Below are positions 1 to 47,374 of a stretch of 64,000 bases of DNA, one piece after another. Made by a program: the position numbers and the translations under genes. How positions within the stretch are numbered: the first letter of the stretch is position 1; each line of letters starts with the position of its first letter. The notes beneath the pieces are model-generated. The model saw only the letters and a list, made by a program, of their open reading frames with translations. It did not search any database and was not told the origin of the DNA. Location: IMG/VR virus record IMGVR_UViG_3300031227_009907, positions 1 to 64,000 of that record. One strand, written 5' to 3'. The stretch is from a virus.

Positions 1-1
1 A

Positions 2-1378
2 TGGGGAATTACCGGTTTACAAGGAAAAACAGGGCTATATAAACCTGGGGATACCGGTATTCAGGGAATTACAGGATTAAGCTATCAAGGGGTTACCGGC
101 CTTTGGGGGCGAACAGGAATTGATGGATTAAAGGGAGATACGGGTATCCAAGGTTTTACGGGAATCCAAGGGATTCAAGGGCATACAGGGGTACGAGGGG
201 TTACGGGTGTTGGTGCTCAAGGGACAACAGGATTCCAAGGAAAAACAGGAGTTCAAGGTCGAACCGGTATTCAAGGAGTAACAGGGTTACGAGGATATAC
301 AGGGATAACAGGGGAAGGCGTAACGGGACTTCAGGGGGTGACAGGTCTTCAAGGTGAAACGGGCATCCAAGGTCTTACAGGAATAAAGGGTACTACCGGG
401 ATAATGGGGGAAACCGGAATTCAAGGGGTTACTGGTCCTACCGGAGGAGACCAAGGGGTAACTGGTTTACGAGGATATACGGGCGCTTCGGGAGGGCCTC
501 CTGGTGGAACTGGGGTTAAAGGGGTTACAGGGATACAAGGAGTTACTGGTGTTCAAGGAGATACCGGTATCCAGGGGGTTACTGGAATCAAAGGTGCAAC
601 CGGACTTCAAGGGACTCAAGGGGTTACTGGTTTATGGGGCGTTACCGGACTGTGGGGCGTGACCGGAATCTCTGGAGGTGTCCAAGGAAATACCGGAATT
701 CAAGGAGATACCGGAATACAAGGGGTAACAGGAATTCAGGGTATAACAGGGATGGGAATAACTGGGTTAAGAGGAATAACCGGCGTAAGAGGCCCCACGG
801 GGCTAAGTGGAGGGCAGCAAGGAGTAACGGGATTATGGGGAGTAACAGGATTATATGGAGGGCCTGACGGTAAAACAGGAATCCAAGGTGTAACGGGAAT
901 CCGAGGGATTACTGGTCTTCGAGGGATTACTGGTCTTCGAGGGATTGAAGGACGAACAGGGATTAAGGGATGGACGGGAATACAGGGGGTAACCGGCCTT
1001 GATCTTGCTCAAGGGATGCCTGAAACACTTGTTTTTATTATAGATGGTGGGGGAGCGGAAATTACTACCGGGATTAAGGGAGATATTGTAGTTGATTTTA
1101 GGTGTCAACTTCAAGCCGTTATTCTCCTTGCAGATCAGACCGGAGATATTGTAATTGATATCTGGGGACGTTCTTATGATTTTTATCCCGCTATTGATGC
1201 CAATACCATGACTGCATCAAATCCCCCTACTATTTCATCTGATGATAGTAGCCGAGATATAACGCTTTCGGGTTGGACTACTACTATAAATGATGTGCCT
1301 TTTACTTTACGCTTCAATGTTGATTCTTGTTCTACTATTACTCGTTGCACTGTAGCCCTTAGACTTTTGAGGTTATAA
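2..1378 (+). CDS. Collagen-like (Gly-X-Thr/Gly-X-Gln) fibre protein with C-terminal globular domain; 5'-truncated by window edge
   Basis: Frame 2 is open from base 2 (WGITGLQGKTG...), upstream of the listed 338 start; long GxT-GxQ repeats; C-terminal IDGGG..ITTGIKGD..LLADQTGDIVIDIW..LRFNVDS domain typical of phage fibre tips. Confidence 0.85.
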   Translation, partial: WGITGLQGKTGLYKPGDTGIQGITGLSYQGVTGLWGRTGIDGLKGDTGIQGFTGIQGIQGHTGVRGVTGVGAQGTTGFQGKTGVQGRTGIQGVTGLRGYTGITGEGVTGLQGVTGLQGETGIQGLTGIKGTTGIMGETGIQGVTGPTGGDQGVTGLRGYTGASGGPPGGTGVKGVTGIQGVTGVQGDTGIQGVTGIKGATGLQGTQGVTGLWGVTGLWGVTGISGGVQGNTGIQGDTGIQGVTGIQGITGMGITGLRGITGVRGPTGLSGGQQGVTGLWGVTGLYGGPDGKTGIQGVTGIRGITGLRGITGLRGIEGRTGIKGWTGIQGVTGLDLAQGMPETLVFIIDGGGAEITTGIKGDIVVDFRCQLQAVILLADQTGDIVIDIWGRSYDFYPAIDANTMTASNPPTISSDDSSRDITLSGWTTTINDVPFTLRFNVDSCSTITRCTVALRLLRL

Positions 1379-1382
1379 ATAA

Positions 1383-1877
1383 ATGTCTACACTTTATATG
1401 GACCCAAACGGAGATAATTCTATTGAGTGGGATAATTCTACAGAACTTACCCACTGGGAAGCAATTAGTCAATTGGTGCGACAACCTGTCGAGCCTAATT
1501 TATTTAATTACATAGATGATACTCCCCCTCCTACCTCTCATAGTGATATATTTGATTTAACCAATGTTGCATTTTCTGGGACAACTTCCTCGCTAGCTAT
1601 TTGGGTTTTTGGTGAATGTCCAGTTCAGGATATTTCTGTTGACCTTTATATTGATGGATCATGGCAAGGGGTCGGTATAATTATAGCAGGAGCTGCGGGT
1701 AGGCCTCGATGGAATAGTGTAAACTATCCTGGCCTTTGGAGTCCAGAACAGTGTAATGCTTCTTTAATGAAAATTATAAGTGTGGGGGGTGGGGCTGTAG
1801 GGTTAGCTACGGGTTGGGCAGGATATGTAGAAATTACTTTTGATCCTGCGCCTCGATCTTTTTCATGGATTACATAA
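1383..1877 (+). CDS. Hypothetical virion/fibre-associated beta-rich protein
   Basis: Directly follows fibre gene; Trp/Gly/Asp-rich, low Lys. Confidence 0.55.
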   Translation: MSTLYMDPNGDNSIEWDNSTELTHWEAISQLVRQPVEPNLFNYIDDTPPPTSHSDIFDLTNVAFSGTTSSLAIWVFGECPVQDISVDLYIDGSWQGVGIIIAGAAGRPRWNSVNYPGLWSPEQCNASLMKIISVGGGAVGLATGWAGYVEITFDPAPRSFSWIT

Positions 1878-1956
1878 GTCAAAATATAAAATAATGAGCG
1901 AATAGGGAGCGAAGTGGCTTTAGTTCTGTGACAAAAGGTTGAATGGGAGAGATAGA

Positions 1957-2760
1957 ATGCGGGAGAGAGCATCTGTTTCACTGTGCATGATTGTAAAAGA
2001 CGAAGAACATTGCATTTGTAGGGTATTAACTTCAGTCCTTGATAACCTTAAATCTCTACGTGAGATAATTTTAGTTGATACGGGCAGTTCAGATAAAACA
2101 ATAGAAAAGGCGCAAGAATGCCTTTCGTTGGCTAACCGGGATGATGTCACTCTGAAGTCCCACCTAAAACCCTTCAGAAACGACTTCGCCCTCTCTCGAA
2201 ACGAGTCATTCCGGTTAGCTACTTCTGACTGGGTAATATGGCTAGACGCAGACGATGAAGCCTCCATAGAGTTTTGTCAACAAATAGACGACTCTATTAA
2301 TAACGCTCTCCCTTATGTGCGGGAAAATGCTGCATTCACTTGTGGTATTTTCCCGTACTATTATCTATTAGACAGTAATGATAATCCAGTAGTCGTTGTT
2401 CCTAGGGAAAGACTCCTTAAGAGAGAAAGTCTACAATTTCCTGTGTGGAGGGGGAAGGTCCACGAATGTATAGATATAAACATATATAAAACCAAAGAAT
2501 TTACTGGCCCTATTCTCCATAGAAGAACATTTAAAGACATGGAAAAAGATGCTAATAGAAATCTTAAAATAATGGGGGATATGATTCAGGGGGGTAGTAT
2601 TGAAATAGAGGGGTATCGTTTTTGGATGTATTATGGATTTGAACTATTTCATAGTGGACAAAAGAAATTGGCAATATCCGCACTAAAAGAAAGCCTGAGA
2701 AGAAATCCATCTAATCAAGAAATTGCTATTATCTGTGAAATGATATGTCAATGCCTCTAA
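1957..2760 (+). CDS. GT2 glycosyltransferase with start of TPR region
   Basis: SLCMIVKDEE, VDTGSSDKT, DFALSRN, WLDADD (DxD), WRGKVHE; GGAGA RBS before ATG 1957. Confidence 0.9.
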   Translation: MRERASVSLCMIVKDEEHCICRVLTSVLDNLKSLREIILVDTGSSDKTIEKAQECLSLANRDDVTLKSHLKPFRNDFALSRNESFRLATSDWVIWLDADDEASIEFCQQIDDSINNALPYVRENAAFTCGIFPYYYLLDSNDNPVVVVPRERLLKRESLQFPVWRGKVHECIDINIYKTKEFTGPILHRRTFKDMEKDANRNLKIMGDMIQGGSIEIEGYRFWMYYGFELFHSGQKKLAISALKESLRRNPSNQEIAIICEMICQCL

Positions 2761-2950
2761 AAGCAAACATAAATAGATATAAGGGAAACTCCAAATGTAC
2801 AGTACTGGTACACTAAGAGTACTAAGAGTCTTAAGAGTACTAGAGTTAATAAGTACTAGAGATATAAGTATATATAGATATAAAGATATAGTAGTTATAA
2901 GTAATTATTAGACAGTGCCTTAAGATAGTGCTTTAAGTAGGACATAAATA
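2761..2950. repeat. AT-rich non-coding spacer with short imperfect repeats (CTAAGAGTA-like, AGTACT x4); origin/packaging-site-like
   Basis: agtactggtacactaagagtactaagagtcttaagagtactagagttaataagtactagagatataagtatatatagatataaagatatag; no ORF. Confidence 0.6.
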
Positions 2951-4255
2951 ATGGGTATTGATTTTTCTTATCTTAGCTATGTTTTTAAAGGAATAGAGGC
3001 AGACCCTAACTATGCTCCTTTGTATTGCTTAGGAGGAGATTATTATAAAAGTAGAAATATTTCTCTTAGTGTTTGGTTTTATGAAAGGGCTATACAATGT
3101 GATATTAATAAAAGCATTTCTGTATTTAAACAACCTGTCTATTGGAATGAATTACCTAAGAATAAATTAATGCTTTTGTACGAAGAAACCGGGGACATTG
3201 AGAAATCAAGGGACTATGCAAGAGAGTTGGGTGATAATTTTGCGGATATGATTTTAACGGCAAGAATACGGTCAGAGAATTTTAATAAATATCCACAACC
3301 TATACGGCTTAATCTTGGTAGTGATGGCCAAAAGAAAGTAGGATTTATTGCTTGTGATATTTGCCATAGAGATGCGGATATGCACTTTGACATGAAAGAA
3401 ATACCTTTCCCTGATAGGTCCGTAGATACAATATATACAGAACATGCTATTGAACATTTAGATTTTAGAGGAGTAATGCAGTTTTTAGAAGAAGTAGGTA
3501 GAGTCCTAAAAATAGGGGGGATGTTGACCATTAAAGCTCCTTGCCTATTGGATTGTTGTAGAAAGTATGTGGAGGCTGTTGAACGGAATGATCTTTCCGA
3601 TCAAATATGGTATAAGAAAACTATTTATGGAAATCAAGATGAGGGGGAAAGAGAACATAAGGGGTTCCAATATCATTTATCTGGATGGGGACAGGTTGGA
3701 CTAAAAAACTTTCTTTCATATTTGAATATCACTAAAAGTGTGGAGTATGACGGATTTAGGACTCCTTCGTTGGCCATAGAAGGCTATAGGGCGCTCATGT
3801 GCTTTGTACAGTGCCCTGTGGATCGTTTTGATGATGCCTCCACGAGGATTAGACGCTTGGGGCTACGAGAAGCCGTCAGAAGGAAGAATCTTCAAGAAAA
3901 AATAAAGGTTGAGTTCTTTTTAGATGTAGAGGAATTAAGAAGTTCTTACCTTAGTGTTGCCGGGGGATGGAGCCCTATTCCTGACATAATTGTTTTTACT
4001 GGGTTTTCAGAAGAAGAAAGGAATTGTGCAAGAGACTATAATGCAAGAGGTGTAATTACTATTTTCGACCATTGTGAAGATTGGCCTATGGAAGGGTTAT
4101 TTGAGATGATGAAAATAGTGAAATTAATTTCATGTTGTTCTTTAGCGTTAAGAGATAAGGTGGGGATAGTAGGGGGATTGAAGGATAAGGTCGTATATGT
4201 TCCTGATTTACCAGATGTTTTATTAATGGGGAATAACCGTGGAAATGAAGCTTGA
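2951..4255 (+). CDS. TPR + class I SAM methyltransferase + N-terminal half of a GT-B glycosyltransferase
   Basis: TPR-like N-term (KGIEADPNYAPLYCLGGDYY); LNLGS..IPFPDRSVD.IY.EHAIEHL..RVLKIGG; C-term DASTRIR..IIVF..IFDHCED..ISCCS..VVYVPD. Confidence 0.8.
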   Translation: MGIDFSYLSYVFKGIEADPNYAPLYCLGGDYYKSRNISLSVWFYERAIQCDINKSISVFKQPVYWNELPKNKLMLLYEETGDIEKSRDYARELGDNFADMILTARIRSENFNKYPQPIRLNLGSDGQKKVGFIACDICHRDADMHFDMKEIPFPDRSVDTIYTEHAIEHLDFRGVMQFLEEVGRVLKIGGMLTIKAPCLLDCCRKYVEAVERNDLSDQIWYKKTIYGNQDEGEREHKGFQYHLSGWGQVGLKNFLSYLNITKSVEYDGFRTPSLAIEGYRALMCFVQCPVDRFDDASTRIRRLGLREAVRRKNLQEKIKVEFFLDVEELRSSYLSVAGGWSPIPDIIVFTGFSEEERNCARDYNARGVITIFDHCEDWPMEGLFEMMKIVKLISCCSLALRDKVGIVGGLKDKVVYVPDLPDVLLMGNNRGNEA

Positions 4256-4775
4256 TTTAGGGTGTGGTCCAGCTAAAGAGGAAGGATATATCGGGATAGA
4301 TATTATCCCCTTTAACCGCGTAGATTGTGTGTGGGATTTAAATAATGGTATCCCATTTAATAATAATGTGTTTGATAGCGTAAAGGCTTATGATGCAATT
4401 GAGCATGTTAGAGATGGAATAAATTTAATGCGGGAAATTTGGAGAGTATTAAAAGGAGGGGGGGTATTTGATTGCCATGTTCCTTCGACTGATGGAAGGG
4501 GGGCCTTTCAAGATTTAACTCACGTTTCATATTGGAATGAGAATTCTTTTTGGTATTATTGGGCAAATGCTCAAGAGTGGCCAGATTATGGCCGTAGAGA
4601 GTGTTTGTTTGAAGCAATTGAATTGTATACAACTCCTATGAGTCAAGACGGCGTATGTCATGTTATTTTTAAAGGGAAGGCTGTTAAGACAGGGGAATGG
4701 TTGGATACTTATAATGAGCGCACAAAAAATCAACCTTGGAAATTAGCTAAAATAGATTGTTTAAAGAAGAATTAA
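4245..4775 (+). CDS. SAM-dependent methyltransferase (Methyltransf_11-like)
   Basis: LDLGCG, DLNNGIPF, DAIEH, EIWRVLKGGG, AFQDLTHVSYW. Confidence 0.9.
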   Translation: MKLDLGCGPAKEEGYIGIDIIPFNRVDCVWDLNNGIPFNNNVFDSVKAYDAIEHVRDGINLMREIWRVLKGGGVFDCHVPSTDGRGAFQDLTHVSYWNENSFWYYWANAQEWPDYGRRECLFEAIELYTTPMSQDGVCHVIFKGKAVKTGEWLDTYNERTKNQPWKLAKIDCLKKN

Positions 4776-4796
4776 AGCAGTAATTTGTTGTTCTGA

Positions 4797-5351
4797 TTGG
4801 GAAGTAAAGTGCATCAATCTAGTTATACTTTAATGCAACAACTAGTTTTTAAATATTTGGACAGTAGGAGTAAATTATATATTCTTGATGTGGGGAGCGG
4901 AGATGTTAATGGAACATATAAAGATATTTTTTCTTGCGTCACTGTGTGGAATTATGTGGGATTAGATTTAGAACCATTAGATAATGTTGATGTTGTCGCT
5001 ACAGATTTTTTTAAATGGCCCTTTGAGGATAATACGTTTAATATAGTGGTTTCCGGGCAATGTTTAGAACATGTTCCGATGCCTTGGTTGTGGATTAAAG
5101 AAATTGTGCGTATCTTAAAACGTAATGGTATTTGCATTATTATTGCTCCTTGGTCTGTTGGTTTACATAGATTTCCTATGGATTGTTGGAGGATTATGCC
5201 GGATGGTATGTCTGTATTATTAGGGGAATGGGCTGGAATGGATGTAATTGAAGTTGGCATGAATCCGATTGGAAAAGAATTACCAATTGGGGATTGTTGG
5301 GGTGTCGCCATAAAGAAACTAATAGGTAGAAAAGATGAGAAAAGACAATAA
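4797..5351 (+). CDS. SAM-dependent methyltransferase (Methyltransf_11-like)
   Basis: ILDVGSGDVNG, YVGLD, SGQCLEHV..PW, HRFPMDCWR. Confidence 0.9.
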   Translation: MGSKVHQSSYTLMQQLVFKYLDSRSKLYILDVGSGDVNGTYKDIFSCVTVWNYVGLDLEPLDNVDVVATDFFKWPFEDNTFNIVVSGQCLEHVPMPWLWIKEIVRILKRNGICIIIAPWSVGLHRFPMDCWRIMPDGMSVLLGEWAGMDVIEVGMNPIGKELPIGDCWGVAIKKLIGRKDEKRQ

Positions 5352-5607
5352 AATTACTTGTAATCGTTGCGGAGAATGGATCAATCCTTTGCGTATGCAC
5401 TATGACATTAAGCCTCCTTATGGGACTATGCCAGGGAAAGATGGGGTTGAGCTTGTGGTAGGGACACATCGTTTTACTGACTGCATTGGGGCAGGAATTG
5501 GGGATCCAACCGTGGAATCTCGTAAGGTTCTTATGGACCTTTGTTCTAGGTGTTGGAATGATTTGCAGGAAATGATAGAAGCATTTGTTGATGATAAGGG
5601 GAATTAA
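5335..5607 (+). CDS. Small Zn-finger-like hypothetical protein
   Basis: CNRC ... DLCSRC. Confidence 0.6.
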   Translation: MRKDNKITCNRCGEWINPLRMHYDIKPPYGTMPGKDGVELVVGTHRFTDCIGAGIGDPTVESRKVLMDLCSRCWNDLQEMIEAFVDDKGN

Positions 5608-5608
5608 A

Positions 5609-5797
5609 ATGGAAAAGAATGTCGTTGTTAAATTTATCGCCCTTTTTGTTATATCATTTATGTTTATACTCCCTATATTCGCTTGTCACCTTGTTCAGTC
5701 ATTTAGTGATCCTGTAATAATGTTGATTGTGATTTACATTGTAGCTTACGTTTGTGGCGTTCTAAGCGCATTATTGTCTACCTATAAGTGGGGCTAA
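5609..5797 (+). CDS. Small two-TM membrane protein
   Basis: Two hydrophobic stretches; AAGGGG before ATG 5609. Confidence 0.55.
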   Translation: MEKNVVVKFIALFVISFMFILPIFACHLVQSFSDPVIMLIVIYIVAYVCGVLSALLSTYKWG

Positions 5798-6303
5798 AAG
5801 TGGATAAATGTCTTGATTTATGTTGTGGGCCTCAAAAACCTGAAGGTTATATCGGGATTGATATTATCCCGTTTAATTGTGTTGATACAGTTTGCGACAT
5901 TAATAATGGGATTCCTTTTGATGATGACACATTTAATAGGGTGAGAGCCCATGATGCCATCGAACATATCTGGGATGGAATGAAATTAATAAAGGAGATA
6001 TGGCGAGTTCTTAAAGATGGCGGCATTTTTGATTGCCTAGTCCCTTCGACTGACGGTAGGGGAGCCTTTCAAGATCAAACCCACGTTAGCTTTTGGAATG
6101 AGAATTCATTTGGATATTGGGTAACGGTTCATCCTTGGGCCGACTATTATAGGGGTAAATGCTTATTTAGCCGTTGTGAGCTTGAGACAACTCCTATGAG
6201 TGATGACAGGGTATGCCACGTTAAGTTTGTTGCAAGCGCAGTAAAGAATAGTGGGTGGATAAACACTATAAAAAATAGAATAAAATCTACGAGGAGATGG
6301 TGA
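5788..6303 (+). CDS. SAM-dependent methyltransferase, close paralogue of 4245..4775
   Basis: LDLCCG, EGYIGIDIIPFN, VPSTDGRGAFQD.THVS.WNENSF shared with 4245..4775. Confidence 0.9.
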   Translation: MGLKVDKCLDLCCGPQKPEGYIGIDIIPFNCVDTVCDINNGIPFDDDTFNRVRAHDAIEHIWDGMKLIKEIWRVLKDGGIFDCLVPSTDGRGAFQDQTHVSFWNENSFGYWVTVHPWADYYRGKCLFSRCELETTPMSDDRVCHVKFVASAVKNSGWINTIKNRIKSTRRW

Positions 6304-6306
6304 GGC

Positions 6307-6534
6307 ATGGATAAAGACATAAACGAGGAAGAAGCCATAAGTAGGGCTATTAAGAAATATGGTCTTAAGCCGTGTCCGTGGTGTGGACAAAAGCCAGAGG
6401 TTTATTGTTTTGATTTTGTTTTGGAGTTTCATGTTTCATGTGAAAACAAGAAATGTTCTTATGGCCCTTACTCGTATAAGACCTTTAAAACCGTAGGGGG
6501 CGCGGTTCGTGCTTGGAATAGGAGAAAGAAATGA
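6307..6534 (+). CDS. Lar-like restriction-alleviation Zn-finger protein
   Basis: LKPCPWCG ... C..KKC ... AVRAWNRR. Confidence 0.7.
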   Translation: MDKDINEEEAISRAIKKYGLKPCPWCGQKPEVYCFDFVLEFHVSCENKKCSYGPYSYKTFKTVGGAVRAWNRRKK

Positions 6535-7226
6535 AAGAAGGCGTTGCTGTAGAGAAGTATGAAGATTTTGTGAAATTAAGGAATGAGTATAGTAATGATT
6601 TATTCTTTGTCTGGCTTGGATATGGAGGAAACCGGTGGAAGCCCGAAGAAATGATCCCTACTGTTTTTGAAAAAATTCCATTTCCTAATTGGAAGCTGGT
6701 TTTAATAAGTGAGTGGGACCCAGGCGAACTTCATCCAAACTGTATCTTTGTAAAGTTTAATTTGAAAGATTCTCCAAAAATATATAAGCTGTGTGATATA
6801 GCCTTAGCTGCCCAGAGAGAAGACATGCAGCCATGTAAAAGCGGTATAAAGGTGTTGACAGCATGGCTAGCTGGGTTGCCAGTCATTGCGTCTCCGTTGC
6901 CAGAGTATGTATCAATCATTTCACATAAGTTAAATGGGTGGATAGCAAAGACTCCCGAAGAGTGGATTGAGGCAATTTCTTATCTACGTGCTTCAGAACA
7001 TAGAGATGAGATGCGAGATAGAGCTTATCAGCAATTAGCTATATATAATGATGATTATTCATTGGCGCTTTTTAAGTCAGCCATTAATAGTAGCGATAAA
7101 CGCATATTCACAGAAGAATGGCTTAAAAGTTTTTATGAGGTTGAATCTTGTAATACATGTGATGGTAGTAGACTTGATTTGTGCGGGAGAGACAAATGTA
7201 AGGATAATGGAGAAGAAAATGGTTGA
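6531..7226 (+). CDS. C-terminal (nucleotide-sugar-binding) half of a GT-B/GT4-like glycosyltransferase
   Basis: FVWLGYGGN, CDIALA, KSGIKVLTAWLAGLPVIASPLPEY, NGWIAKTPEEW; lacks N-terminal Rossmann domain. Confidence 0.8.
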   Translation: MKEGVAVEKYEDFVKLRNEYSNDLFFVWLGYGGNRWKPEEMIPTVFEKIPFPNWKLVLISEWDPGELHPNCIFVKFNLKDSPKIYKLCDIALAAQREDMQPCKSGIKVLTAWLAGLPVIASPLPEYVSIISHKLNGWIAKTPEEWIEAISYLRASEHRDEMRDRAYQQLAIYNDDYSLALFKSAINSSDKRIFTEEWLKSFYEVESCNTCDGSRLDLCGRDKCKDNGEENG

Positions 7227-10200
7227 TTATTTAGTAACCACGAGAGAAGTTATTAGTGGGTTAAAAGAGGTAAGGGAAAGGACTTGGGGCAGTAAGAAGG
7301 TCCTTGTTATATATGGGATGCTTGGAGGGAACACAAATCAATATATGAGTTATGGCGATCATTGGATGAATGCCTTTAGGGCCTTATGTGAAGATGATAA
7401 CGTAGGATACTATAATGCTAATGTTGATATTTATAAACTTCCTAAGGGTTATGACCTTTATTTCTTTGTAGAGTTTAATCCTGAGTTTCTAAAGGTTAAA
7501 GACCTTGATCTAGGCGGAAGGACGGCCATTTATTGCTGGGATACGCATCTTCATCCATTTGTGTATCTTGGATGTTTGCCAAAGGTTTTTGATTATGTTT
7601 TTGTCTCTAACCCTGTAGATGCTTTAAGGCTTGAGGAATATTCTGGGAAGGGGAACGTGCATTGTATCCCTGAGGCTTTTAATCCATCTATTCACCATCC
7701 ATATTTACCTGAATTGGAAGCGGCCAGAATGAATATGGTGATTTTTATAGGGCAAAGAGATGATGTTTATTTGGGGCCTGATCTTAAAACAAAAGATGCC
7801 TGTACACAGTTTGTTGCAAATAAACTTGGAGATAAGTTTGTTAGGCTTCAGGGGGTTTGGGGGAAGCAATATGGAGCCCATTTGAGAGCCTCTAAGGTTG
7901 GATTTGATTTTTCTGTTGGAGAACATCTTGGGACAAGAACATTTGAGGCATTAGCTTCTGGATGTATTTTGTTGACCAATGAGAGAAAGGCAATAAGGGA
8001 TTTTAAAGCAGATAATCTTGGAGATGCTTCTTTTGCTGATAATATTGTTATGTATCGGAATATGGATGATTTGAAAGGGTCTATTGAAAATCTTCTTAAG
8101 CCTAAATTTAAAGCCCATATGGATGAAGAGACATGGAAAAATTTTGTAAGAAATCATAGTTATCAAGCAAGAACATTGGATATGTTGAGGATAGTAGGGG
8201 GCGTAGAGGAGAGTGCGCGTGGTACCGACGATTCAACCTATAGAAAAGAAATAGACCATAGGATTGATGCCGCAGAGATACTTAATGGTCGCCACATTGG
8301 AGATGACCCTGAAAGACAAACCGCTTTAGAAGAGGAGAGGAAAGTTTTGGATAGAAATAAGATTGAGATTTTTATTATTATACCGACTTTACAGGGTAAT
8401 GAAGAATATCTTAGACTATGCCTTGAGAGCCTAAGCAAGTCTACTGAATATGATGGGTTTAAATATAAGCTGTTGATAGTAGGGAATATTGAAAACATTG
8501 CCTATGATGTCCTTTCGCCATCTATTAGTGTTATAAACTTTTATTTAGGTGAAAATTCATATTTTACTATGAAAGTAAATAGGGCCGTTAAATGGCTTTT
8601 GGATAGCGGAAGCCTTGAGAAAGAGGAGGGAATTAATAAATATGTTATTTTTGCGAATGATGATGTTATTGCAAGAAAAGATGCCATTAAAAATATGGTA
8701 GATATGATGCAGAAAGATGAGAATGTGGCCGGTATTTGCCCTGTAAGCAATTGTGATCTTGGGTGGAGGTGCGAAGATTTAGATTTTGCTCTATGGGGTA
8801 GTAATGCAAATAATAAACTTATTCTTCATCCCGATATGACCATAGAAGAAATTAGGGCTATAGTTCCGGTATCTGGGGACATGTTCAATAATAATATTTA
8901 TTGGAGAATAACCAATGCGAATATAGACTTTGATGGGTCGTGGCATATGTTGTGCGATAGTGAAGACCTTGATAATTCTTTATTTTTTGATGGATATGAT
9001 TTATACGAAAGGGTTGTTGAATGGATACCATTTTATTTTGTAATGTTTCCAGGAGAACTTGTTAAAGATACTGGTTTGTTGGATGGCCAATATAGAATTA
9101 CGCACTCTGATTTAGATTATTGTGAGAGAGCAAAGCAGAAATGGGTTTCTACGCAGGGGCCTATTGAGTTTGGAATATGTCATAGCGCCTTCGTATTTCA
9201 CTTTGGAGCTAAAGCAAGGCATCTTTTAGAAGACAAGGATTACGATGAATATCATAGAATTTGCGAGGAAGATATTAAAAAATATCATGTAGCGCATATG
9301 GGGGATATTCCTGTGATGGATGATGGGGGCGTTCAACCACCTATGGTTTCAGTAGGCGATAAAAAACATAGAGAGGCTATAGATAAAATAGATGTTGGGA
9401 CGCAAGACAATGAACCCTTTATTCCTATAGGTGAAATGCCAGGGGGAGATGAAGAGGTTAGGGATAAACCTTTTACCTGTTCTCATGTCGCGTATCCCCC
9501 TAAGTTGGATTTAACTTTATTAACACAGGGGATGGATGATGTTACTAGCCCAAAGATTAGCTTTGATTCTAATTATTGGATTGGAAGGGCCGAAAAGCAT
9601 CCTCGTGGCCGTGTCGTTGTATATTCGGGGTTGGCATGTGAGGACTGGTCAAGGAAGTCTATGACGGAGAAGGGGCTTGGGGGGAGTGAGACCTGTCAGA
9701 TTTACTTGTGTGAGCATTTGGCTAAACTGGGATATGAGGTTTATAATGTGGGTCAGTGCCCTATGGATTGGCATGGGAGGATTGTTAGCGGGGTTGTATG
9801 GGTGCGATATGACCAATGGGAAGACTTTAGGAACCTTATGAATAATGTCTATATTGACTTTTTTATTAGCTCAAGAGACCTTGATGTCCTAAAGGCGGTT
9901 GCCCCTGTCGGATATATGAAGAAAATTCTTTGGGTGCATGATACGTGGTATGGAGAAATGGAGGTTCCATTTGACCTTATTGATAAGATTGTTCTATTGT
10001 CTCCGTGGCATAAGTCGTGGTGGGATCAGTGCTATGGAGATGATATAAAACTAATGCAGAAATATGGGGCTGGATGGCTTAATTATAATATGGTAAGTAT
10101 TATTTCTGATGGAGTAGATACAAGAGATTTTCCTGAAGTGGATTTAGAGAGAAAAGTAAGTAAATGCGGTGAAGATAAGCCCATTGAACTTGCCTACATT

Positions 10201-10779
10201 TCTTCTCCTGATCGTGGCTTAGATGTTTTGATTGAGCATATTTTCCCTGAGTTGGTAAAGATGTATGGGCATAATATTTATTTAAAAGTATTTTATGGTT
10301 GGGAAAATTTTGATGCTGTTGCAGAGTATAGAAATGATAATGACATGAGGGCTTTTAAGAAGAAGGTTACGGATGCGCTCAATAGTATGGTTGCTTTTGC
10401 TGATGGACCCCTTAGGCTTGGGAAAAAGGAGTTTTATCAAGAGTTAGCGAAATGTGATTATTGGATTTATCCAACTTATTTTAACGAAACATTTTGTATT
10501 TCTGCCATAGAAGCTATGTTGTGTGGCGTTACACCTATTGTAACTAATTTGGCGGCATTACGCACAACTGTTGGGGAACATGGGTATCTTGTGAGCCCTG
10601 AGCCTGGAGGAGTTTATAACTCAGTTGTTCAGGACAACTTTATTAATTTATTTGAGGCGGTAAGAAAGATGGATGATAATAGACTTGAAAAACTTAAGAA
10701 GGCTATGGGGTACGCAAAACAATTTGACTGGAGTAATGTCGTTAAAGCATGGGATGAAATGTTGCAACGGATGCGGTGA
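7219..10779 (+). CDS. Triple glycosyltransferase fusion: CgeB/Glyco_trans_1_2-like + GT2 + GT4
   Basis: RTFEALASG..LLTN/HSYQAR; IIIPT/FANDDV/SDLDYC/FVFHFG; GLGGSE/SSPDRGL/ETFCISAIEA; GGAG RBS before ATG 7219. Confidence 0.88.
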   Translation: MVDYLVTTREVISGLKEVRERTWGSKKVLVIYGMLGGNTNQYMSYGDHWMNAFRALCEDDNVGYYNANVDIYKLPKGYDLYFFVEFNPEFLKVKDLDLGGRTAIYCWDTHLHPFVYLGCLPKVFDYVFVSNPVDALRLEEYSGKGNVHCIPEAFNPSIHHPYLPELEAARMNMVIFIGQRDDVYLGPDLKTKDACTQFVANKLGDKFVRLQGVWGKQYGAHLRASKVGFDFSVGEHLGTRTFEALASGCILLTNERKAIRDFKADNLGDASFADNIVMYRNMDDLKGSIENLLKPKFKAHMDEETWKNFVRNHSYQARTLDMLRIVGGVEESARGTDDSTYRKEIDHRIDAAEILNGRHIGDDPERQTALEEERKVLDRNKIEIFIIIPTLQGNEEYLRLCLESLSKSTEYDGFKYKLLIVGNIENIAYDVLSPSISVINFYLGENSYFTMKVNRAVKWLLDSGSLEKEEGINKYVIFANDDVIARKDAIKNMVDMMQKDENVAGICPVSNCDLGWRCEDLDFALWGSNANNKLILHPDMTIEEIRAIVPVSGDMFNNNIYWRITNANIDFDGSWHMLCDSEDLDNSLFFDGYDLYERVVEWIPFYFVMFPGELVKDTGLLDGQYRITHSDLDYCERAKQKWVSTQGPIEFGICHSAFVFHFGAKARHLLEDKDYDEYHRICEEDIKKYHVAHMGDIPVMDDGGVQPPMVSVGDKKHREAIDKIDVGTQDNEPFIPIGEMPGGDEEVRDKPFTCSHVAYPPKLDLTLLTQGMDDVTSPKISFDSNYWIGRAEKHPRGRVVVYSGLACEDWSRKSMTEKGLGGSETCQIYLCEHLAKLGYEVYNVGQCPMDWHGRIVSGVVWVRYDQWEDFRNLMNNVYIDFFISSRDLDVLKAVAPVGYMKKILWVHDTWYGEMEVPFDLIDKIVLLSPWHKSWWDQCYGDDIKLMQKYGAGWLNYNMVSIISDGVDTRDFPEVDLERKVSKCGEDKPIELAYISSPDRGLDVLIEHIFPELVKMYGHNIYLKVFYGWENFDAVAEYRNDNDMRAFKKKVTDALNSMVAFADGPLRLGKKEFYQELAKCDYWIYPTYFNETFCISAIEAMLCGVTPIVTNLAALRTTVGEHGYLVSPEPGGVYNSVVQDNFINLFEAVRKMDDNRLEKLKKAMGYAKQFDWSNVVKAWDEMLQRMR

Positions 10780-10825
10780 TGAAAATGAATAGGGAAGTTT
10801 GACAGGAATGTTCAAGTATCTTTAA

Positions 10826-11203
10826 TTGATGGGAGAAAGATTCGTGAAACCCTTAAGTGCGTTAAATCCTCAGGTTCCAGGATTGCAAGTGGTAGTTAAA
10901 CCTGAGATACTAATCAATATTAAAAATCGTAATGAATTGATAATTTACATTAATGAGATATTGCAACAAATAGGGGATGGTTTATTGGCGGCTGTAGAGC
11001 AGCTATGGACCTATGAAGGGGATGATTCTCAAAATATTATTGTTCCTGGGGCTCCCAAGGTTGCTGATTTTGACAAGATGAAGAAACTCTTGGAAGGGGG
11101 GAATGGAGGAGAGGGGAAGGAAGACACAGGTGGGGAGGATGAAGTCAGCCCTGAGGCAACACAGGGCGAATTTGATAAGGGGATTGAAGAAGATGAAGGT
11201 TAA
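10826..11203 (+). CDS. Hypothetical protein with acidic tail
   Basis: ORF in operon context. Confidence 0.5.
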   Translation: MMGERFVKPLSALNPQVPGLQVVVKPEILINIKNRNELIIYINEILQQIGDGLLAAVEQLWTYEGDDSQNIIVPGAPKVADFDKMKKLLEGGNGGEGKEDTGGEDEVSPEATQGEFDKGIEEDEG

Positions 11204-11510
11204 TGTAAATGGTGAAAAGTATGTTGTAGCCTGGAGATATACTAGGCATTTTCCTCCTTTCTTTAAATTTATTGGGATTACATATTGCTATATTAAGCTT
11301 TTCAATTTTAGCGATAAAAAAGGAGATTGGGGAGAAGAGATTGTTGCCTCCGATAGCGCCAAGTGCTCTGTTATGGATCAGTTTTGTAAGGATGTTGGTA
11401 GAAAAATTTCCTTAAAAAGAGCCCTTGTCGGTTTTGATAAAAACATTAGAGGTGCTTTTTGGCACGCATATTTGCATAGGAATGAGGAGGAAAAGAGTGA
11501 AGTGGCTTAG
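11193..11510 (+). CDS. Conserved phage hypothetical protein
   Basis: AKCS..DQF.K..GRKISL.RAL motif; overlaps upstream stop. Confidence 0.6.
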   Translation: MKVNVNGEKYVVAWRYTRHFPPFFKFIGITYCYIKLFNFSDKKGDWGEEIVASDSAKCSVMDQFCKDVGRKISLKRALVGFDKNIRGAFWHAYLHRNEEEKSEVA

Positions 11511-11997
11511 GTATCTTAAATATATTTTAATCCATAAATGGTACGTGATGTTGATGTGTTTTAGATTTGGCCTTATATGGCGCGGTGTTGTGCATGATTT
11601 GTCTAAATTTTATCCTTCAGAGTTCATTCCCTATATTGAACATTTTTATGGTAAGAAAGCAAAAAAGTGGAGAGATAATACTGGCTATTATAAACCTTCT
11701 GATACTGGTGATTTAAATTTTGATAGGGCATGGAATTATCATGCTAATAGGAACGATCATCATTGGCAGTTTTGGGCTATCCCTGAATATGATAGTGTTA
11801 AAGCTCTTGAGATGCCCGAAAAGTGTGTAAAAGAAATGATATGTGACTGGTGGGGAGCCAATAAAGCACAAGGGCATGGGGGATGGGGAGGCCCTGATGG
11901 GGTTAGAGTTTGGTATATGAAAAATGAATATAAGATGGTTTTGCACATTAATAGTAGATTGATGGTGGAGCGCATTCTTAATGAAATTTCTGGGTAA
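11497..11997 (+). CDS. DUF5662-like HD-type protein
   Basis: HKWYV, HDLSK..SEF, AW.YH..RN.HHWQFW, MP...EMICDW; GAGGAGG RBS before GTG 11497. Confidence 0.8.
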   Translation: MKWLRYLKYILIHKWYVMLMCFRFGLIWRGVVHDLSKFYPSEFIPYIEHFYGKKAKKWRDNTGYYKPSDTGDLNFDRAWNYHANRNDHHWQFWAIPEYDSVKALEMPEKCVKEMICDWWGANKAQGHGGWGGPDGVRVWYMKNEYKMVLHINSRLMVERILNEISG

Positions 11998-12202
11998 ATT
12001 GTTACCATTCTAAGAGATAGAGGAGAGTAATGATGGGTATTTTAGAGACAGCTATAAATCTTGTTGTGTGGTTTTTGTGTATGTTATTCTCTATTATATG
12101 TGTTATTTATTCTGGTGAGTTTAAGGGACCTAACAGGGTTATACTTTTTGGTATTGCAATTATCCTTGTTTATCTTATGACATTGCGTAAGCCAGGTGGG
12201 TA

Positions 12203-13609
12203 ATGAAATTTTTGGGTAAATTGTTACCATTCCAAAAGACAGGGGTAGATATTGCCTTTGAGGCTCTACATGAGACCCGTAAGGCGTTTATCCTATCTGA
12301 CCAAATGGGCCTAGGTAAAACTTTTTCTGGGATTGCTATAGCTAGTAGGATGGACATTAATCGATGTCTAGTTGTCTGCCCAAACCCGGCAAAGGAAATA
12401 TGGGCAAGCCATATTGAAAAGCTTACAGATGCTAGCTATTTAATTGTTAATTCAAGGAGCGAATTAAAGAGCAGGGTTAATTTTTTAATAATTGGATATG
12501 ATAGGTTGCGGATATTAGAAGGTTGTATATCTAATAAATATTTTGAATTATTGATTGCTGATGAATTTCATAGCATAAAAAATCCAGACGCTAAAAGGTC
12601 GCAAGCTATTAGATCATTGAATGCTAAGTTTAGGCTTTTCCTGTCTGGAACTCCTGTTTTAAATTATAGGGATGAATTATTTAATGTATTGAATATCGTT
12701 GATCCTGTAGAGTTTCCAGGTTATGATAACTTTGTAAGTCGCTTTTGTACTACAGACAGAATAAGGGTTAGATATAGGAAGGGCAGGCGATGGAGGACTC
12801 ATTTTGTTAAAAAGGTTTGTGGTGGCAAAAATACGAAGGAGTTAGTTGGTTTAATTAGTCCCTTTATGCTTAGGCGTACAAGAAAAGATGTTCTTCCTTT
12901 TTTACCTGAAGAACTTTATCAAACCTATTATGTAGACATGAAGGGAAAACAGTTACAGCTTTATAAAAAGGTTGAGAGGTCACTAAGAGACGATATAGAT
13001 AAGAAGGGGGTTAATACTCAAAATGCAATTGTCCGTTTTACTAAACTTAGGCAGATGTGCCAGATAGTTAAGAGGGATAGTGGAAAATATAGTTCTGTAA
13101 AGTTAGATTTCCTAGAAGAGCTTTGTGAAGATATTTTACAGACTAAAGATGATGGGAATATAAATAAAATACTTGTTGTGTCCCCATTTCGAGTCCCAGT
13201 TAGACATGCCCGTAAGATGCTAAACGCCTTTAATCCCGTATATGTTGATGGGACTGTTTCTGATGATGATATGGAGAAGGAGAAGAAAAAGTTTCAAGAA
13301 GATAAAACATGCCGTGTTTATATTGGAACAATCAGGAAGAATATGCAGGCCATTACCCTTACGGCGGCAACTCATGTTATATATATAGGGTGTGACGTTG
13401 TTCCTGCGTATAATGAGCAAGTTAAGGATAGGGCCATAAGGATAGGGCAGAAAAGGTCTGTATTGGTAATAAAAATTCTTTGCAGAGATAGTATCGAGGA
13501 GAGGATTGAAGAAATATTAGAGAGAAAGGGGGATGATTTCAACGATCTATTTGGTAAGGGGGGGAATAGGTTTAGTAGAAGCATAAGCTCGATAAGAAAG
13601 GTATTGTAA
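12203..13609 (+). CDS. SNF2-family helicase/translocase
   Basis: LSDQMGLGKT, DEFH, LSGTP, MLRRT, Q..DRAIRIGQ. Confidence 0.93.
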   Translation: MKFLGKLLPFQKTGVDIAFEALHETRKAFILSDQMGLGKTFSGIAIASRMDINRCLVVCPNPAKEIWASHIEKLTDASYLIVNSRSELKSRVNFLIIGYDRLRILEGCISNKYFELLIADEFHSIKNPDAKRSQAIRSLNAKFRLFLSGTPVLNYRDELFNVLNIVDPVEFPGYDNFVSRFCTTDRIRVRYRKGRRWRTHFVKKVCGGKNTKELVGLISPFMLRRTRKDVLPFLPEELYQTYYVDMKGKQLQLYKKVERSLRDDIDKKGVNTQNAIVRFTKLRQMCQIVKRDSGKYSSVKLDFLEELCEDILQTKDDGNINKILVVSPFRVPVRHARKMLNAFNPVYVDGTVSDDDMEKEKKKFQEDKTCRVYIGTIRKNMQAITLTAATHVIYIGCDVVPAYNEQVKDRAIRIGQKRSVLVIKILCRDSIEERIEEILERKGDDFNDLFGKGGNRFSRSISSIRKVL

Positions 13610-13872
13610 TGAAATACGCTGTCAGTGTAAAAGAGAAAAAGCAGCGTTGTCCTCGTAGGCATGAAAGATTATGGGAATTTGGGAAGGGAGGAGGTGTCGT
13701 TTATTGGTGTCTTGACTGTGGGGGGATTTCTTTAAAGAATATTCCGAAGGGAACAAGAAGGCTTTGGTTTTATCCTGGCAGCACTAATGATAGATTTGAA
13801 AAAGATGTAGAAATATGGAATAAGATTGTGAATATTATTGATGAGATGCACAATAATAGCTGTAGGATTTAA
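13609..13872 (+). CDS. Small hypothetical protein
   Basis: CP..H ... WCLDCG; flanked by ~57 bp direct repeat. Confidence 0.6.
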   Translation: MKYAVSVKEKKQRCPRRHERLWEFGKGGGVVYWCLDCGGISLKNIPKGTRRLWFYPGSTNDRFEKDVEIWNKIVNIIDEMHNNSCRI

Positions 13873-13924
13873 GGGGGAGGGATAGGTTTAGTGGAAGCAT
13901 AAGCTCAATAAGAAAGGTGTTATA

Positions 13925-14353
13925 ATGTGGTTTTTTAAGAAAAGGCATGGAATGTGTTGTGTTTGCGGTAAATTGGTTCACGCTGGATTTGATGGAGACG
14001 TGGGGTGGGTTGACCATTATTTAACGGATCGCTATATTCATTTTTTATGCCGGGAAAGGCATAGTCCTAATGATAGACGGAAAGAAGGTACGAGCACAAG
14101 GCGTCTTAAGGTTCGTCGCAAGGAAGATAGAAATAATTTGCCCCCTGATAGTGTTAATATTTTAAAAATTCAGCTTGATTGTTTAGGGGCATTGGGGGTA
14201 GAGAAGTGGCTTATAAATGATGCTTTGAAGATGGCTCGGGAACGATGTGAGCAGATGAAGACCCCAAAGGGATTTACGGGAATGATTGGGATAACGGGGA
14301 TGGCGGAGAATTATATACGCGACAATGGCCTTAACAGTAAAGGAGATAAATAA
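13925..14353 (+). CDS. Hypothetical protein (Zn-finger-like N-terminus)
   Basis: CCVCG ... HFLC. Confidence 0.55.
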   Translation: MWFFKKRHGMCCVCGKLVHAGFDGDVGWVDHYLTDRYIHFLCRERHSPNDRRKEGTSTRRLKVRRKEDRNNLPPDSVNILKIQLDCLGALGVEKWLINDALKMARERCEQMKTPKGFTGMIGITGMAENYIRDNGLNSKGDK

Positions 14354-14859
14354 TGGATAAAGTAGGGGTGGGAGGGTTGGCTGATGCTGTTAAGATTAAT
14401 TCTTTTGTTGTGAAAGAAGAAGTAATTGCTCAAAAAATGGGGTCACAGGGTCAGTGGGGGGTTAAAGTAGTGCCTCTTCAACCAGAGAAATTATATGGGC
14501 ATCCAAGATTTTATGAAATCTTAGGAGAACTAAAGAAATTACATAATGATAAAAACCATGATTATGCCGGTGATGATCCTCTTTCTAATTTTGAGGTTTG
14601 CTTAGACGAGCTTGATGTTCCAGAATGGATAGGGGTTCTTATAAGGACCGGAGATAAAAGAAGGAGAATATCTAATTATGCAAAGCAAGCCTTAAAAGCT
14701 GAAATCTTAGGGAAAGCCGATGTAGAGAAATATCTTCATGTAGCAGACGAGAGCATTATTCAGACAATGAAGGATTTGGCTGTATACTATATATTGATGG
14801 TAATTCTCTTTGAAGAAGCGGTTTCTGCGCGTGAAAAGGACTGTGTTAAGGAGGAATAG
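14353..14859 (+). CDS. DUF1599/nucleotide-modification-associated domain protein
   Basis: KNHDYA..DPLSNF ... R.GDK..RI ... ESI..T..DLAVY. Confidence 0.75.
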   Translation: MDKVGVGGLADAVKINSFVVKEEVIAQKMGSQGQWGVKVVPLQPEKLYGHPRFYEILGELKKLHNDKNHDYAGDDPLSNFEVCLDELDVPEWIGVLIRTGDKRRRISNYAKQALKAEILGKADVEKYLHVADESIIQTMKDLAVYYILMVILFEEAVSAREKDCVKEE

Positions 14860-14860
14860 G

Positions 14861-17237: not shown

Positions 17238-17247
17238 GGGAGTAAAA

Positions 17248-17781: not shown

Positions 17782-17786
17782 AATGT

Positions 17787-17873
17787 GGGCCAGTGGCGGA
17801 ACGGCAGACGCAAGGGACTTAAAATCCCTCGTTATTAAATAACATATGGGTTCGACTCCCATCTGGCCCACCA
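17787..17873 (+). tRNA. tRNA-Leu(UAA)
   Basis: GGGCCAG/CTGGCCC acceptor, loop CT-TAA-AA, long variable arm, GGTTCGACTCC, encoded CCA. Confidence 0.95.
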
Positions 17874-17884
17874 TTTATATATAA

Positions 17885-17960: not shown

Positions 17961-17965
17961 TTTAT

Positions 17966-18055: not shown

Positions 18056-18077
18056 ATATAGCTTGGGGAATATTTAA

Positions 18078-19644: not shown

Positions 19645-19678
19645 CCCATTATATTCTTAATTATTCTTTGGAATTACC

Positions 19679-46328: not shown

Positions 46329-46610
46329 ATGAGTGAGCCGAACCCCTGGGAACTACCGGGCGAGGAACTGGACGAGGCGGTGGCGAAAGCGAAAGGGTGG
46401 GTGGAAGACCCCAGCTGGTATTGGGAGCTCGGCCGCCCCTGGCTGCTGTGGAGAGAGATCAGGGTACACATGTTGATTCTCTACGCACAAGGAGCCCACA
46501 GAATAGCTCCATACCGGCACCCAACTCTAGATTTTGGACCGCTCTCCCCCGAGGCCGTCACCCGCGCCTGGCTGTGGTGGTGGTATCACCAGGAGGACAA
46601 AGAGAAATAA
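46329..46610 (+). CDS. GC-rich hypothetical protein (NinX-like ELDEAVA motif)
   Basis: L.G.ELDEAVAKA.GW; visibly higher GC than flanks. Confidence 0.6.
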   Translation: MSEPNPWELPGEELDEAVAKAKGWVEDPSWYWELGRPWLLWREIRVHMLILYAQGAHRIAPYRHPTLDFGPLSPEAVTRAWLWWWYHQEDKEK

Positions 46611-47374
46611 ATAAAAATTGTAGAATAATTTGTGGTGATTGTGAGAAGGTTATTTGCTGGTTTCCCAATGAAGTAATAGACCTTGTTGTTACTTCCCCGC
46701 CATACAATGTAGGGCTTGGGGAAAATAAATATAATAAACGGGGGTATGATCTTTATAATGATAAAAAAGGGTTTAAGGATTATATTGAATGGCTAAAAAG
46801 CGTATTTTCTTTGCTGAAACCTAAAATGAGAAAAGGAGGGCGTATTTGCATCAATGTTGGAGATGGGAAGAATGGAAAGGTCCCAACGCATGTATTCATT
46901 TCTTCTTTTATGATGAGTATTGGATATTTGCCTATTTCTATAATTGTTTGGGATAAGAAAGAAACGAGCAATAGAGCTAGTTGGGGAAGTTGGTTGTCGC
47001 CTTCGTGCCCTAGTTTTCCCCGGCCATTTGAATATATTTTAATATTTGCCAATGAAACAAGAAAGCTTTGTGTAAACGGGGAAACAGACCTTATTAAAGA
47101 AGAGTTTATAAAGTATTCTTATGGTTTATGGGAGTTTAGTGGAGAGAAAAAGGGAAGGGTTGGGCATCCCGCTCCTTTTCCAGAAGAGTTGCCATACAGG
47201 CTTATAAAGATGTTGTCATGGAAGAGGTCTGTTGTTTTTGATCCATTTTGTGGGAGTGGAACAACCTGTGTGGTGGCTAATAAACTGGGAAGGAAAACCG
47301 TTGGCATAGATATATCAGAAGAATATTGCAAGATAGCTAGGGATAGGATTGAGCAGTCTGAAAAGGAGAAATAA
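46607..47374 (+). CDS. DNA N4-cytosine/N6-adenine methyltransferase (beta class); start codon unclear
   Basis: IICGDC, DLVVTSPPYN, HPAPFPEEL, VFDPFCGSGTT, GIDISEEYC.IA..RI. Confidence 0.88.
   Translation: MNKNCRIICGDCEKVICWFPNEVIDLVVTSPPYNVGLGENKYNKRGYDLYNDKKGFKDYIEWLKSVFSLLKPKMRKGGRICINVGDGKNGKVPTHVFISSFMMSIGYLPISIIVWDKKETSNRASWGSWLSPSCPSFPRPFEYILIFANETRKLCVNGETDLIKEEFIKYSYGLWEFSGEKKGRVGHPAPFPEELPYRLIKMLSWKRSVVFDPFCGSGTTCVVANKLGRKTVGIDISEEYCKIARDRIEQSEKEK

Follow-up and report, generated by a model that had tools for sequence, protein, structure and literature searches.

That SgtA O-glycosylates collagen repeats has been established, and viruses are likewise known to glycosylate virions with enzymes that they themselves encode. 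In C. difficile, SgtA (358 aa) is composed of a GT-A domain (residues 1-260) and tetratricopeptide repeats (TPR; residues 262-358); its gene lies directly upstream of bclA3, and the enzyme adds N-acetylglucosamine in β-O-linkage (β-O-GlcNAc) to threonine in the G-P-T repeats (PMC7157674). GmaR is the O-GlcNAc transferase of Listeria flagellin, and SunS is the peptide S-glycosyltransferase of sublancin. Giant-virus glycosylation systems, including the glycosylation of Mimivirus collagen and fibrils, have been reviewed (PMC9614988). A literature search returned no paper tying SgtA-like enzymes to phage collagen fibres, and studies of aquatic phages read such glycosyltransferase genes as acting on lipopolysaccharide (LPS) or DNA (PMC10202952; PMC7029224). 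The locus described here opens the IMG/VR virus record IMGVR_UViG_3300031227_009907, the first 64 kb of which (hereafter the window) were analysed, and consists of a gene for a collagen-like fibre (2..1378) followed on the same strand by a block of glycosyltransferase and methyltransferase genes (1939..10779). The genomic evidence indicates that this block probably encodes a cytoplasmic pathway by which the phage modifies its own collagen-like virion fibre.

The fibre gene and the lead glycosyltransferase

The first enzyme gene of the block (1939..2760, + strand; likely start at the ATG at 1957) begins 561 bp after the end of the collagen open reading frame (ORF), on the same strand, and encodes the N-terminal fragment of an SgtA-like protein glycosyltransferase, comprising a GT2 domain (63.9 bits; cut-off 23.3) and the first TPR. 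By sequence, residues 12-255 have GmaR (E 1.3e-9) and SunS (E 1e-6) as their nearest solved structures. The top NCBIfam model for the GT2 domain is likewise the SunS family, with a score under the equivalog cut-off, and the phage protein is therefore placed in the same broad family and is not an equivalog. All residues that are invariant in the family alignment (alignment A1) are kept, among them D103-A104-D105, H175 and the D-T-G-S-x-D block. A family alignment searched against prokaryotes, each species being represented by one genome, gave 590 relatives; the best 80 of the 590 share 31-38% identity over residues 12-272, are encoded by ORFs of 355-370 aa and come nearly all from spore-forming Clostridia and Bacilli (Firmicutes). 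A first-pass annotation of this DNA had likened the locus to BclA-type glycosylation by a neighbouring GT2-TPR enzyme, and the likeness holds in both architecture and gene position when SgtA/BclA3 is taken as the reference, with GmaR and SunS as the closest characterised enzymes.

The same annotation made its proposal depend on a genomic coupling between these enzymes and G-X-Thr fibres in relatives, and this coupling proved strong. Among the best 80 bacterial GT2-TPR loci, a G-X-Thr collagen ORF is present in 45, mostly as the next gene on the same strand. In IMG/VR loci with enough downstream sequence, such an ORF lies within ~600 bp of the GT2 gene in 17 of 58, the viral background (flanking sequence at distances over 5 kb) being one collagen ORF in 362 kb; at one of these 17 loci (L073) the C-terminal domain of the phage fibre is also present. 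At another of these loci, on a viral contig of 469 kb (L031), a collagen-like ORF of more than 2,664 aa (12537-20528), built from the same G-x-T-G-x-Q hexads as the phage fibre, stands 600 bp after the gene for an 877-aa protein containing a related GT2. Viral contigs of 120-428 kb carry relatives of the single-chain enzymes described in the next section, and at seven of the eight loci the enzyme gene is directly preceded, on the same strand, by giant G-X-Thr collagen ORFs of up to 2,259 aa, the gene order being that of the phage. The enzyme at these eight loci joins a GT2-TPR protein to a GT4 domain with homology to the C-terminal part of the 7207..10779 product, and methyltransferase homologues lie alongside in two of them. 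As seven of the eight loci of this related fused enzyme follow giant collagen genes, the coupling reaches beyond the lead enzyme.

The fibre ORF itself (2..1378, + strand; 458 aa; Pfam Collagen, E 1.8e-39) is the 3' part of its gene, the 5' end being truncated by the start of the contig. The dozens of Gly-X-Thr triplets claimed at first pass can now be given as a count: ~106 G-X-Y triplets are spread over 11 runs, 49 of the triplets are G-X-Thr, and Gln occupies the Y position in 23. The X position is Ile, Val or Leu in 72 of the 106 triplets, only four prolines are present, and the commonest unit is the hexad G-v-T-G-i-Q. In four sequencing runs, the Logan contigs break precisely within the repeats, whose word depth is 2-4-fold that of unique sequence. 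The position of the contig end at the fibre gene is thus explained, because assemblies break inside its repeats, and the raised depth suggests further similar collagen genes, either in the absent part of the genome or in co-occurring relatives.

The last 115 residues of the fibre (window positions 1007-1375) form a separate C-terminal domain with more than 420 homologues of ~55% identity. In these homologues, the tip is joined to N-terminal parts that include DUF2793, DUF5907, Mtd_N, lectin-type domains and other collagen regions, and one of them carries the source name 'phage-related tail fiber protein'. The domain matches phrog_10330, 'virion structural protein' (E 1e-15), and Pfam returned no family for it. 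An AlphaFold model shows a jelly-roll β-sandwich with a predicted local distance difference test score (pLDDT) of 87. Its top fold match is the C-terminus of the tail fibre of Agrobacterium phage 7-7-1 (Z 9.8, marginal), followed by a cyanophage capsid cement protein and XepA/YomS, likewise marginal at Z 8-10; Foldseek gave no match at E <= 1e-3. ORF 2..1378 is read here as a virion fibre, of either the tail or the head. As a separate observation, the highly conserved tip is found on very diverse N-terminal parts, which is the reverse of the usual tail-fibre pattern. Within the set P0001-P0120, one protein (P0002) carries two copies of the domain.

Between the fibre gene and the enzymes lies an ORF for a protein of 164 aa and of unknown function (1383..1877, + strand), with no Pfam or PHROG family. 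In the ESM Atlas it falls closest to clusters of hypothetical viral proteins 177-182 aa long (scores 0.95-0.96), and a metagenome scan with it found no relative.

Domain composition of the enzyme block

Judged by its homologies, 1939..10779 is a fragmented copy of a single-chain enzyme of ~1,470 aa with the domain order GT2-TPR-MT-GT-B-GT2-GT4 (MT, methyltransferase), a type of protein encoded in metagenomes and on contigs of huge phages; because the phage pieces are colinear with one such enzyme, P0142, the block represents this architecture broken in two places. A HMMER search with ORF 2951..4255 returned 3,459 relatives, the best of which are single polypeptides of 650-680 aa with GT2, TPR and Methyltransf_11 domains. 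In these relatives, residues ~255-670 match residues 10-420 of ORF 2951..4255, and the first ~250 residues match ORF 1939..2760 (E 4e-25). The 830-aa protein P0129 carries GT2-TPR-MT plus an added Glycos_transf_1 domain, and the complete domain order is found in P0130, P0142, P0149 and P0152 (1,457-1,485 aa). Along P0123 as well as P0142, the counterparts of ORFs 1939, 2951, 6531 and 7207 follow one another in the phage order. For P0142, residues 255-647 correspond to residues 12-408 of ORF 2951 (E 4.4e-26), 674-810 to residues 28-178 of ORF 6531..7226 (E 1e-14), 788-1104 to residues 339-728 of ORF 7207..10779 (E 5e-22) and 1077-1464 to residues 771-1172 of the latter (E 3e-42). ORF 6531..7226 also aligns with residues 678-809 of P0129 (E 7e-13), and in P0129 and P0142 alike the 6531-like segment comes straight after the homologue of the end of ORF 2951..4255. 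Compared with these homologues, the phage chain is distributed over four ORFs that are set apart by a 190-bp spacer and six other ORFs, and a CgeB-family GT-B domain is extra at the front of the last gene.

The first of the two breaks, 190 bp long, lies inside the TPR. The AT-rich insert at this point (2761..2950; no strand assigned) supplies, by its sequence, a stop codon, short direct repeats and an AGGA ahead of the next ATG. A search of 1..12000 against Rfam gave no match for it, and its 10-mer repeat shows no enrichment elsewhere in the window. Residues 8-98 of ORF 2951..4255 correspond in alignment to the final TPR repeats of bacterial GT2-TPR enzymes (~360 aa), and 2761..2950 therefore breaks the GT2-TPR gene inside the TPR. 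The TPR is thereby divided over two polypeptides, the first repeat residing in 1939..2760 and the remaining ~90 aa in 2951..4255.

The product of ORF 2951..4255 (+ strand) is a three-part protein, delimited by alignments and a structural model, which contains the TPR remainder (residues 5-109), a class I S-adenosylmethionine (SAM) methyltransferase (114-283; Methyltransf_11, 33.3 bits) and a Rossmann-like domain (283-420). In the structural model of the protein (pLDDT 81.6), the methyltransferase adopts the class I fold (Z 14.5); the sugar O-methyltransferase RebM ranks among its best matches (Z 13.8), a match that leaves the substrate of the predicted methyltransferase unfixed. Colinearity with the single-chain enzymes and the Rossmann-like predicted structure support the assignment of residues 283-420 as the N-terminal half of a GT-B glycosyltransferase. 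Fold searches with the whole 434-aa model returned methyltransferases, and a comparison by hhalign of the profile of its C-terminal domain with that of the N-terminal domain of the fusion's GT4 was negative. Paralogy of the C-terminus of ORF 2951, or of ORF 6531, with the large fusion was also considered, and BLAST found none.

The second break is an insert of 2.3 kb at the interdomain linker of this GT-B, containing three methyltransferase genes, two small Cys-rich ORFs, one of them Lar-like, and a 70-aa membrane ORF. The three genes encode small SAM methyltransferases, MTa (4239..4775; Methyltransf_11, 32.3 bits), MTb (4797..5351; 46.5 bits, phrog_32762) and MTc (5788..6303; 32.5 bits), all on the + strand, MTa and MTc being paralogues with 64% identity. 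Together with the domain in ORF 2951..4255, the four class I SAM methyltransferases all score above the Methyltransf_11 cut-off of 21.2 bits. A joint between 4924 and 5085 was taken as belonging to another organism's methyltransferase, given sides of 23 bases and a depth in run X1 far above that of the phage. The remaining ORFs of the insert, also on the + strand, are a 90-aa ORF with Cys-x2-Cys pairs (5335..5607), which is zinc-ribbon-like, has a weak ZZ match (E 0.0086) and no PHROG; the hydrophobic 70-aa ORF (5585..5797; KD19 2.68), which a hydropathy scan predicts as the only membrane protein of the block; and a 75-aa zinc-ribbon ORF (6307..6534) matching phrog_599, Lar-like restriction alleviation protein (E 1.2e-7). 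Membership of the first two in the system is uncertain, and the Lar-like ORF is probably a passenger gene.

Beyond the insert, ORF 6531..7226 (+ strand) encodes the C-terminal half of the split GT-B (Glyco_trans_1_4, 41.6 bits); this ORF also occurs on a contig of 99 kb. The last gene, 7207..10779 (+ strand), encodes an enzyme of 1,190 aa in which Pfam distinguishes three domains, a CgeB-family GT-B (Glyco_trans_1_2, 37.7 bits), a GT2 and a GT4-type GT-B (Glyco_trans_1_4, 41.8 bits). The middle GT2 reaches 19.4 bits by Pfam, but E 5e-22 against the GT2 segment of P0142. No enzyme of the block has a membrane segment in the hydropathy scan, and all are therefore predicted to be soluble.

These results bear on the first-pass annotation in several ways. 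Its count of at least five glycosyltransferase domains stands at five units, which rest on Pfam, on the P0142 alignment for the middle GT2 and on colinearity for the N-terminal GT-B half; its four SAM methyltransferase domains are likewise upheld, and its split GT-B is supported through colinear single-chain homologues and, for the N-terminal half, through position and predicted structure. The GT2 and TPR identity of the lead enzyme was correctly named, and its gene is itself divided in two by the 190-bp insert. The listed domains are present, the block as a whole being a fragmented single-chain enzyme, and the system continues beyond the window to contig positions 76.8-81.6 kb.

Proposed function and its rivals

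Were the block to act on the fibre, the GT2-TPR enzyme, made as two polypeptides, would bind the G-X-Thr region through its TPR and place a first sugar on the hydroxyls of threonines at the Y position of the repeats. The glycan would then be lengthened by the remaining units (split GT-B, CgeB-family GT-B, GT2 and GT4), and the four class I SAM methyltransferases would O-methylate its sugars, capping or decorating it. All of these enzymes would act in soluble form inside the infected cell, with donors drawn from the host or from genes in the absent part of the genome. As stated at first pass, no genes for nucleotide-sugar synthesis or export were found, nor any lipid-carrier family, in a scan of ~50 contig ORFs that covered the small ORFs in part. 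We infer the substrate, the order of the steps, the target of methylation and the activity of the split proteins. Of the earlier proposal of a phage-made methylated glycan on the fibre, it is thus the genomic coupling and the enzyme families that have been confirmed, the remainder of the pathway being put forward conditionally. A methylated glycan has precedent, since BclA glycans contain O-methylated sugars, anthrose being one example, and the chlorovirus enzyme A064R unites two glycosyltransferases and a methyltransferase in one enzyme. For anthrose, 2-O-methylation is stated in PMC6222408. The glycan may stabilise the helix of a collagen that is poor in proline, serve as a shield or imitate surface glycoproteins of the host.

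A number of points weigh against fibre modification. Two of the enzymes are split, possibly with loss of function; the N-terminal GT-B half has no family, fold or profile match of its own; and the methyltransferases have no substrate-specific family match. The nearest viral relatives of the GT2 (L018-L030) mostly have no adjoining collagen gene. The fibre N-terminus and about 22% of the genome are absent, and SgtA was compared by its published description, not by sequence. Finally, a second glycosyltransferase cluster adjoins the capsid gene, and other or additional virion targets are thus possible.

This second cluster lies past the window (contig 76,790-81,576, + strand; L007:14790-19575) and begins 100 bp after the capsid gene. 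Its first gene encodes a GT9-like protein; a 120-aa ORF, a double GT2 and a single GT2 follow, and the last gene, for a B12-binding radical SAM enzyme, is cut by the 3' end of the contig. Phages with a 56%-identical capsid protein do not have this cluster, and it is therefore regarded as a lineage-specific addition at the capsid position. Should the missing ~23 kb hold the tail module, glycosylation genes would stand on both sides of that module. A viral protein of 950 aa (L175:4473-7322) fuses a B12 radical SAM enzyme, 36% identical to that of the phage, with a GT2 like the neighbouring one. This fusion suggests that the radical SAM enzyme acts in a glycan pathway. At two other loci, a radical SAM relative stands beside a multi-GT2 protein and a (G-S-S/G-T-S)n collagen-like ORF.

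Taking the two clusters together, a wider version of the proposal can be entertained, in which a multi-subunit line, produced by gene fission and enlarged by the additional methyltransferases, and the capsid-side cluster sugar-coat both fibres and head with heavily methylated glycans. This version is advanced tentatively and is rather unlikely to hold in full; if true, it would describe a virion-wide glycocalyx on a prokaryotic virus, possibly as an adaptation to hypersaline conditions or as a mimic of the collagen glycoproteins of host spores or surfaces.

A first rival holds that the enzymes target other virion proteins (capsid, decoration or tail), instead of or besides the fibre, as in the virion glycosylation of mycobacteriophages. 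The position of the second, lineage-specific cluster, with its GT9-like, GT2 and B12 radical SAM genes 100 bp from the capsid gene, is what recommends it. However, the cluster in the window is tied to collagen genes by synteny in three independent locus sets, and the capsid protein has no Ser/Thr-rich tail, so that this rival is unlikely as an account of the block.

Similarly low in probability is the reading that the enzymes remodel surface glycans of the host, such as LPS, teichoic acids or S-layer glycoproteins, and thereby block superinfection or mask receptors. It is the usual interpretation of phage glycosyltransferases near tail-fibre genes (PMC7029224; PMC10202952), it agrees with the PHROGs class 'moron/auxiliary metabolic', and enzymes that build envelope polysaccharides commonly belong to the GT4, GT2 and GT9 families. 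Against this, the ORFs scanned contain no priming transferase, flippase, polymerase or transporter, all the enzymes are predicted to be soluble, the lead enzyme's characterised relatives have proteins or peptides as substrates, and the adjacency to collagen genes is strong.

A third alternative is that insertions split the single-chain enzyme and inactivated it, leaving a decaying remnant and an unmodified fibre. Such a remnant would account for the two breaks relative to the single-chain homologues (190 bp in the TPR and 2.3 kb between the GT-B halves) and for passenger genes such as the Lar-like ORF. However, frameshifts and internal stops are absent from the pieces of the block, and the two breaks coincide with repeat or domain boundaries. 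Every fragment begins with a start codon of its own, in most cases after a purine-rich, ribosome-binding-like run, and the genes abut or overlap. The residues invariant in both family alignments are kept in both split proteins. In contigs of three runs from separate samples (X1, X2 and X4; 2017-2019), the block is recovered with 0-2 differences over 11 kb; the 190-bp spacer shows no difference in the contigs that span it, and no joint skipping it was found. This integrity of sequence, together with its stability across samples and years, speaks against simple decay, as does the example of a functional split GT-B in Alg13/Alg14, whose Rossmann halves are separate polypeptides divided at the interdomain linker. 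The chance that the block is a remnant is accordingly put as small.

Hypermodification of the phage's own DNA by these glycosyltransferases and methyltransferases is scarcely credible: phages do glycosylate hydroxymethylated bases with GT-B enzymes, and such a role has been proposed (PMC10202952), but no base-hydroxymethylation or other base-modification family was found among the ~50 contig ORFs scanned, a separate N6/N4 DNA methylase is encoded at 46397..47374, and the enzyme families and the TPR domain suit protein substrates.

The phage and its relation to known systems

The window is the first 64 kb of a linear viral contig of 81,576 bp with a CheckV completeness of 78%, so that ~22% of the genome, and with it the fibre N-terminus beyond the contig start, is absent. 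A DnaE-type polymerase, helicases, a primase, SbcCD-like and UvsX-like proteins and a terminase are encoded within the window, and a portal, a prohead protease and an SU10-type major capsid protein past its end on the same contig; the source is an uncultured tailed phage. Eight salt-lake metagenome runs from 2017-2019 contain its DNA (at least 0.9 of the sampled words), and a megablast search of 1..12000 against GenBank phages gave no match. Capsid relatives (L008-L016), with complete genomes of 95-105 kb, have neither these glycosyltransferase clusters nor the helicase and are for this reason unsuitable as close relatives. A scan for promoters and terminators gave signal no higher than expected from shuffling.

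A number of other features of the contig were recorded in passing. Every gene lies on the + strand, and a very strong excess of G over C on the coding strand extends across the whole contig (GC skew +0.2 to +0.4 throughout). Between 20000 and 30000, G+C rises to 0.45-0.48 vs ~0.38 elsewhere, and the ORFs there have no Pfam family. A 979-aa ORF (49833-52772) matches the terminase large subunit at residues 57-335 and carries an HNH endonuclease domain at ~588-660; insertion of a homing element, an intein and a fusion are all possible explanations. Two neighbouring ORFs (61472-62736) resemble sulfotransferases, the first through a weak Sulfotransfer_3 match (E 3.9e-5, under the cut-off) and the second through a P-loop-like N-terminus, G-R-C-G-T.

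If fibre modification is correct, many environmental phages would depend for the recognition of their hosts, the stability of their particles and their antigenicity on a post-translational layer that annotation misses. Glycosylated threonine can replace hydroxyproline in stabilising collagen helices, and the proline-poor G-(I/V/L)-T repeats offer a direct test case for such stabilisation. A natural enzyme of ~1,470 aa broken at domain boundaries would serve as a model of how far glycosylation assembly lines tolerate fission, and the locus is a possible source of parts for soluble protein O-glycosylation and sugar methylation.

What is particular to this locus is the fission of the single chain, the extra methyltransferases, the capsid-side cluster and the hydrophobic G-(I/V/L)-T-G-x-Q repeat. 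By the published description of SgtA/BclA3, the phage system shares with it a soluble GT-A (GT2) enzyme with a TPR and a gene beside that of a Thr-rich collagen; the N-terminal family motif x-S-L-C-M-I-V, read for SgtA from its cloning primer, is common to both, and enzymes of SgtA length from spore-forming Firmicutes are the best bacterial matches of the phage enzyme. In contrast to SgtA, the phage enzyme is split in the TPR, with its second part fused to a methyltransferase and half a GT-B, and the gene order is collagen followed by enzyme. The fibre also differs from BclA3 in its repeats, G-(I/V/L)-T-G-x-Q as opposed to G-P-T, and from BclA proteins in its C-terminus, which is probably a phage virion domain rather than one of BclA type.

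The single-chain enzymes P0130, P0142 and P0149, uncharacterised and without a name, show colinear homology over each piece of 1939..10779 except the extra CgeB-family domain, and relatives of these enzymes (L165-L171) lie directly downstream of giant G-X-Thr collagen genes; the phage differs in having the chain in four genes, three added methyltransferase genes and one added GT-B domain. GmaR and SunS similarly combine a GT2 with a helical repeat domain and glycosylate proteins or peptides, but their substrates are flagellin and a bacteriocin peptide, and they have neither a collagen partner nor a methyltransferase fusion. The likeness to Alg13/Alg14 is one of architecture; in the phage, however, the N-terminal half is fused to the TPR and methyltransferase. 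With virus-encoded virion glycosylation (mycobacteriophages, chlorovirus A064R and Mimivirus), the phage would have in common the use of its own soluble glycosyltransferases, some of them fused to methyltransferases. The mycobacteriophage and giant-virus systems employ other enzyme families on other substrates, whereas here a prokaryotic host, a collagen-type Thr repeat as the proposed target and a fragmented enzyme set come together.

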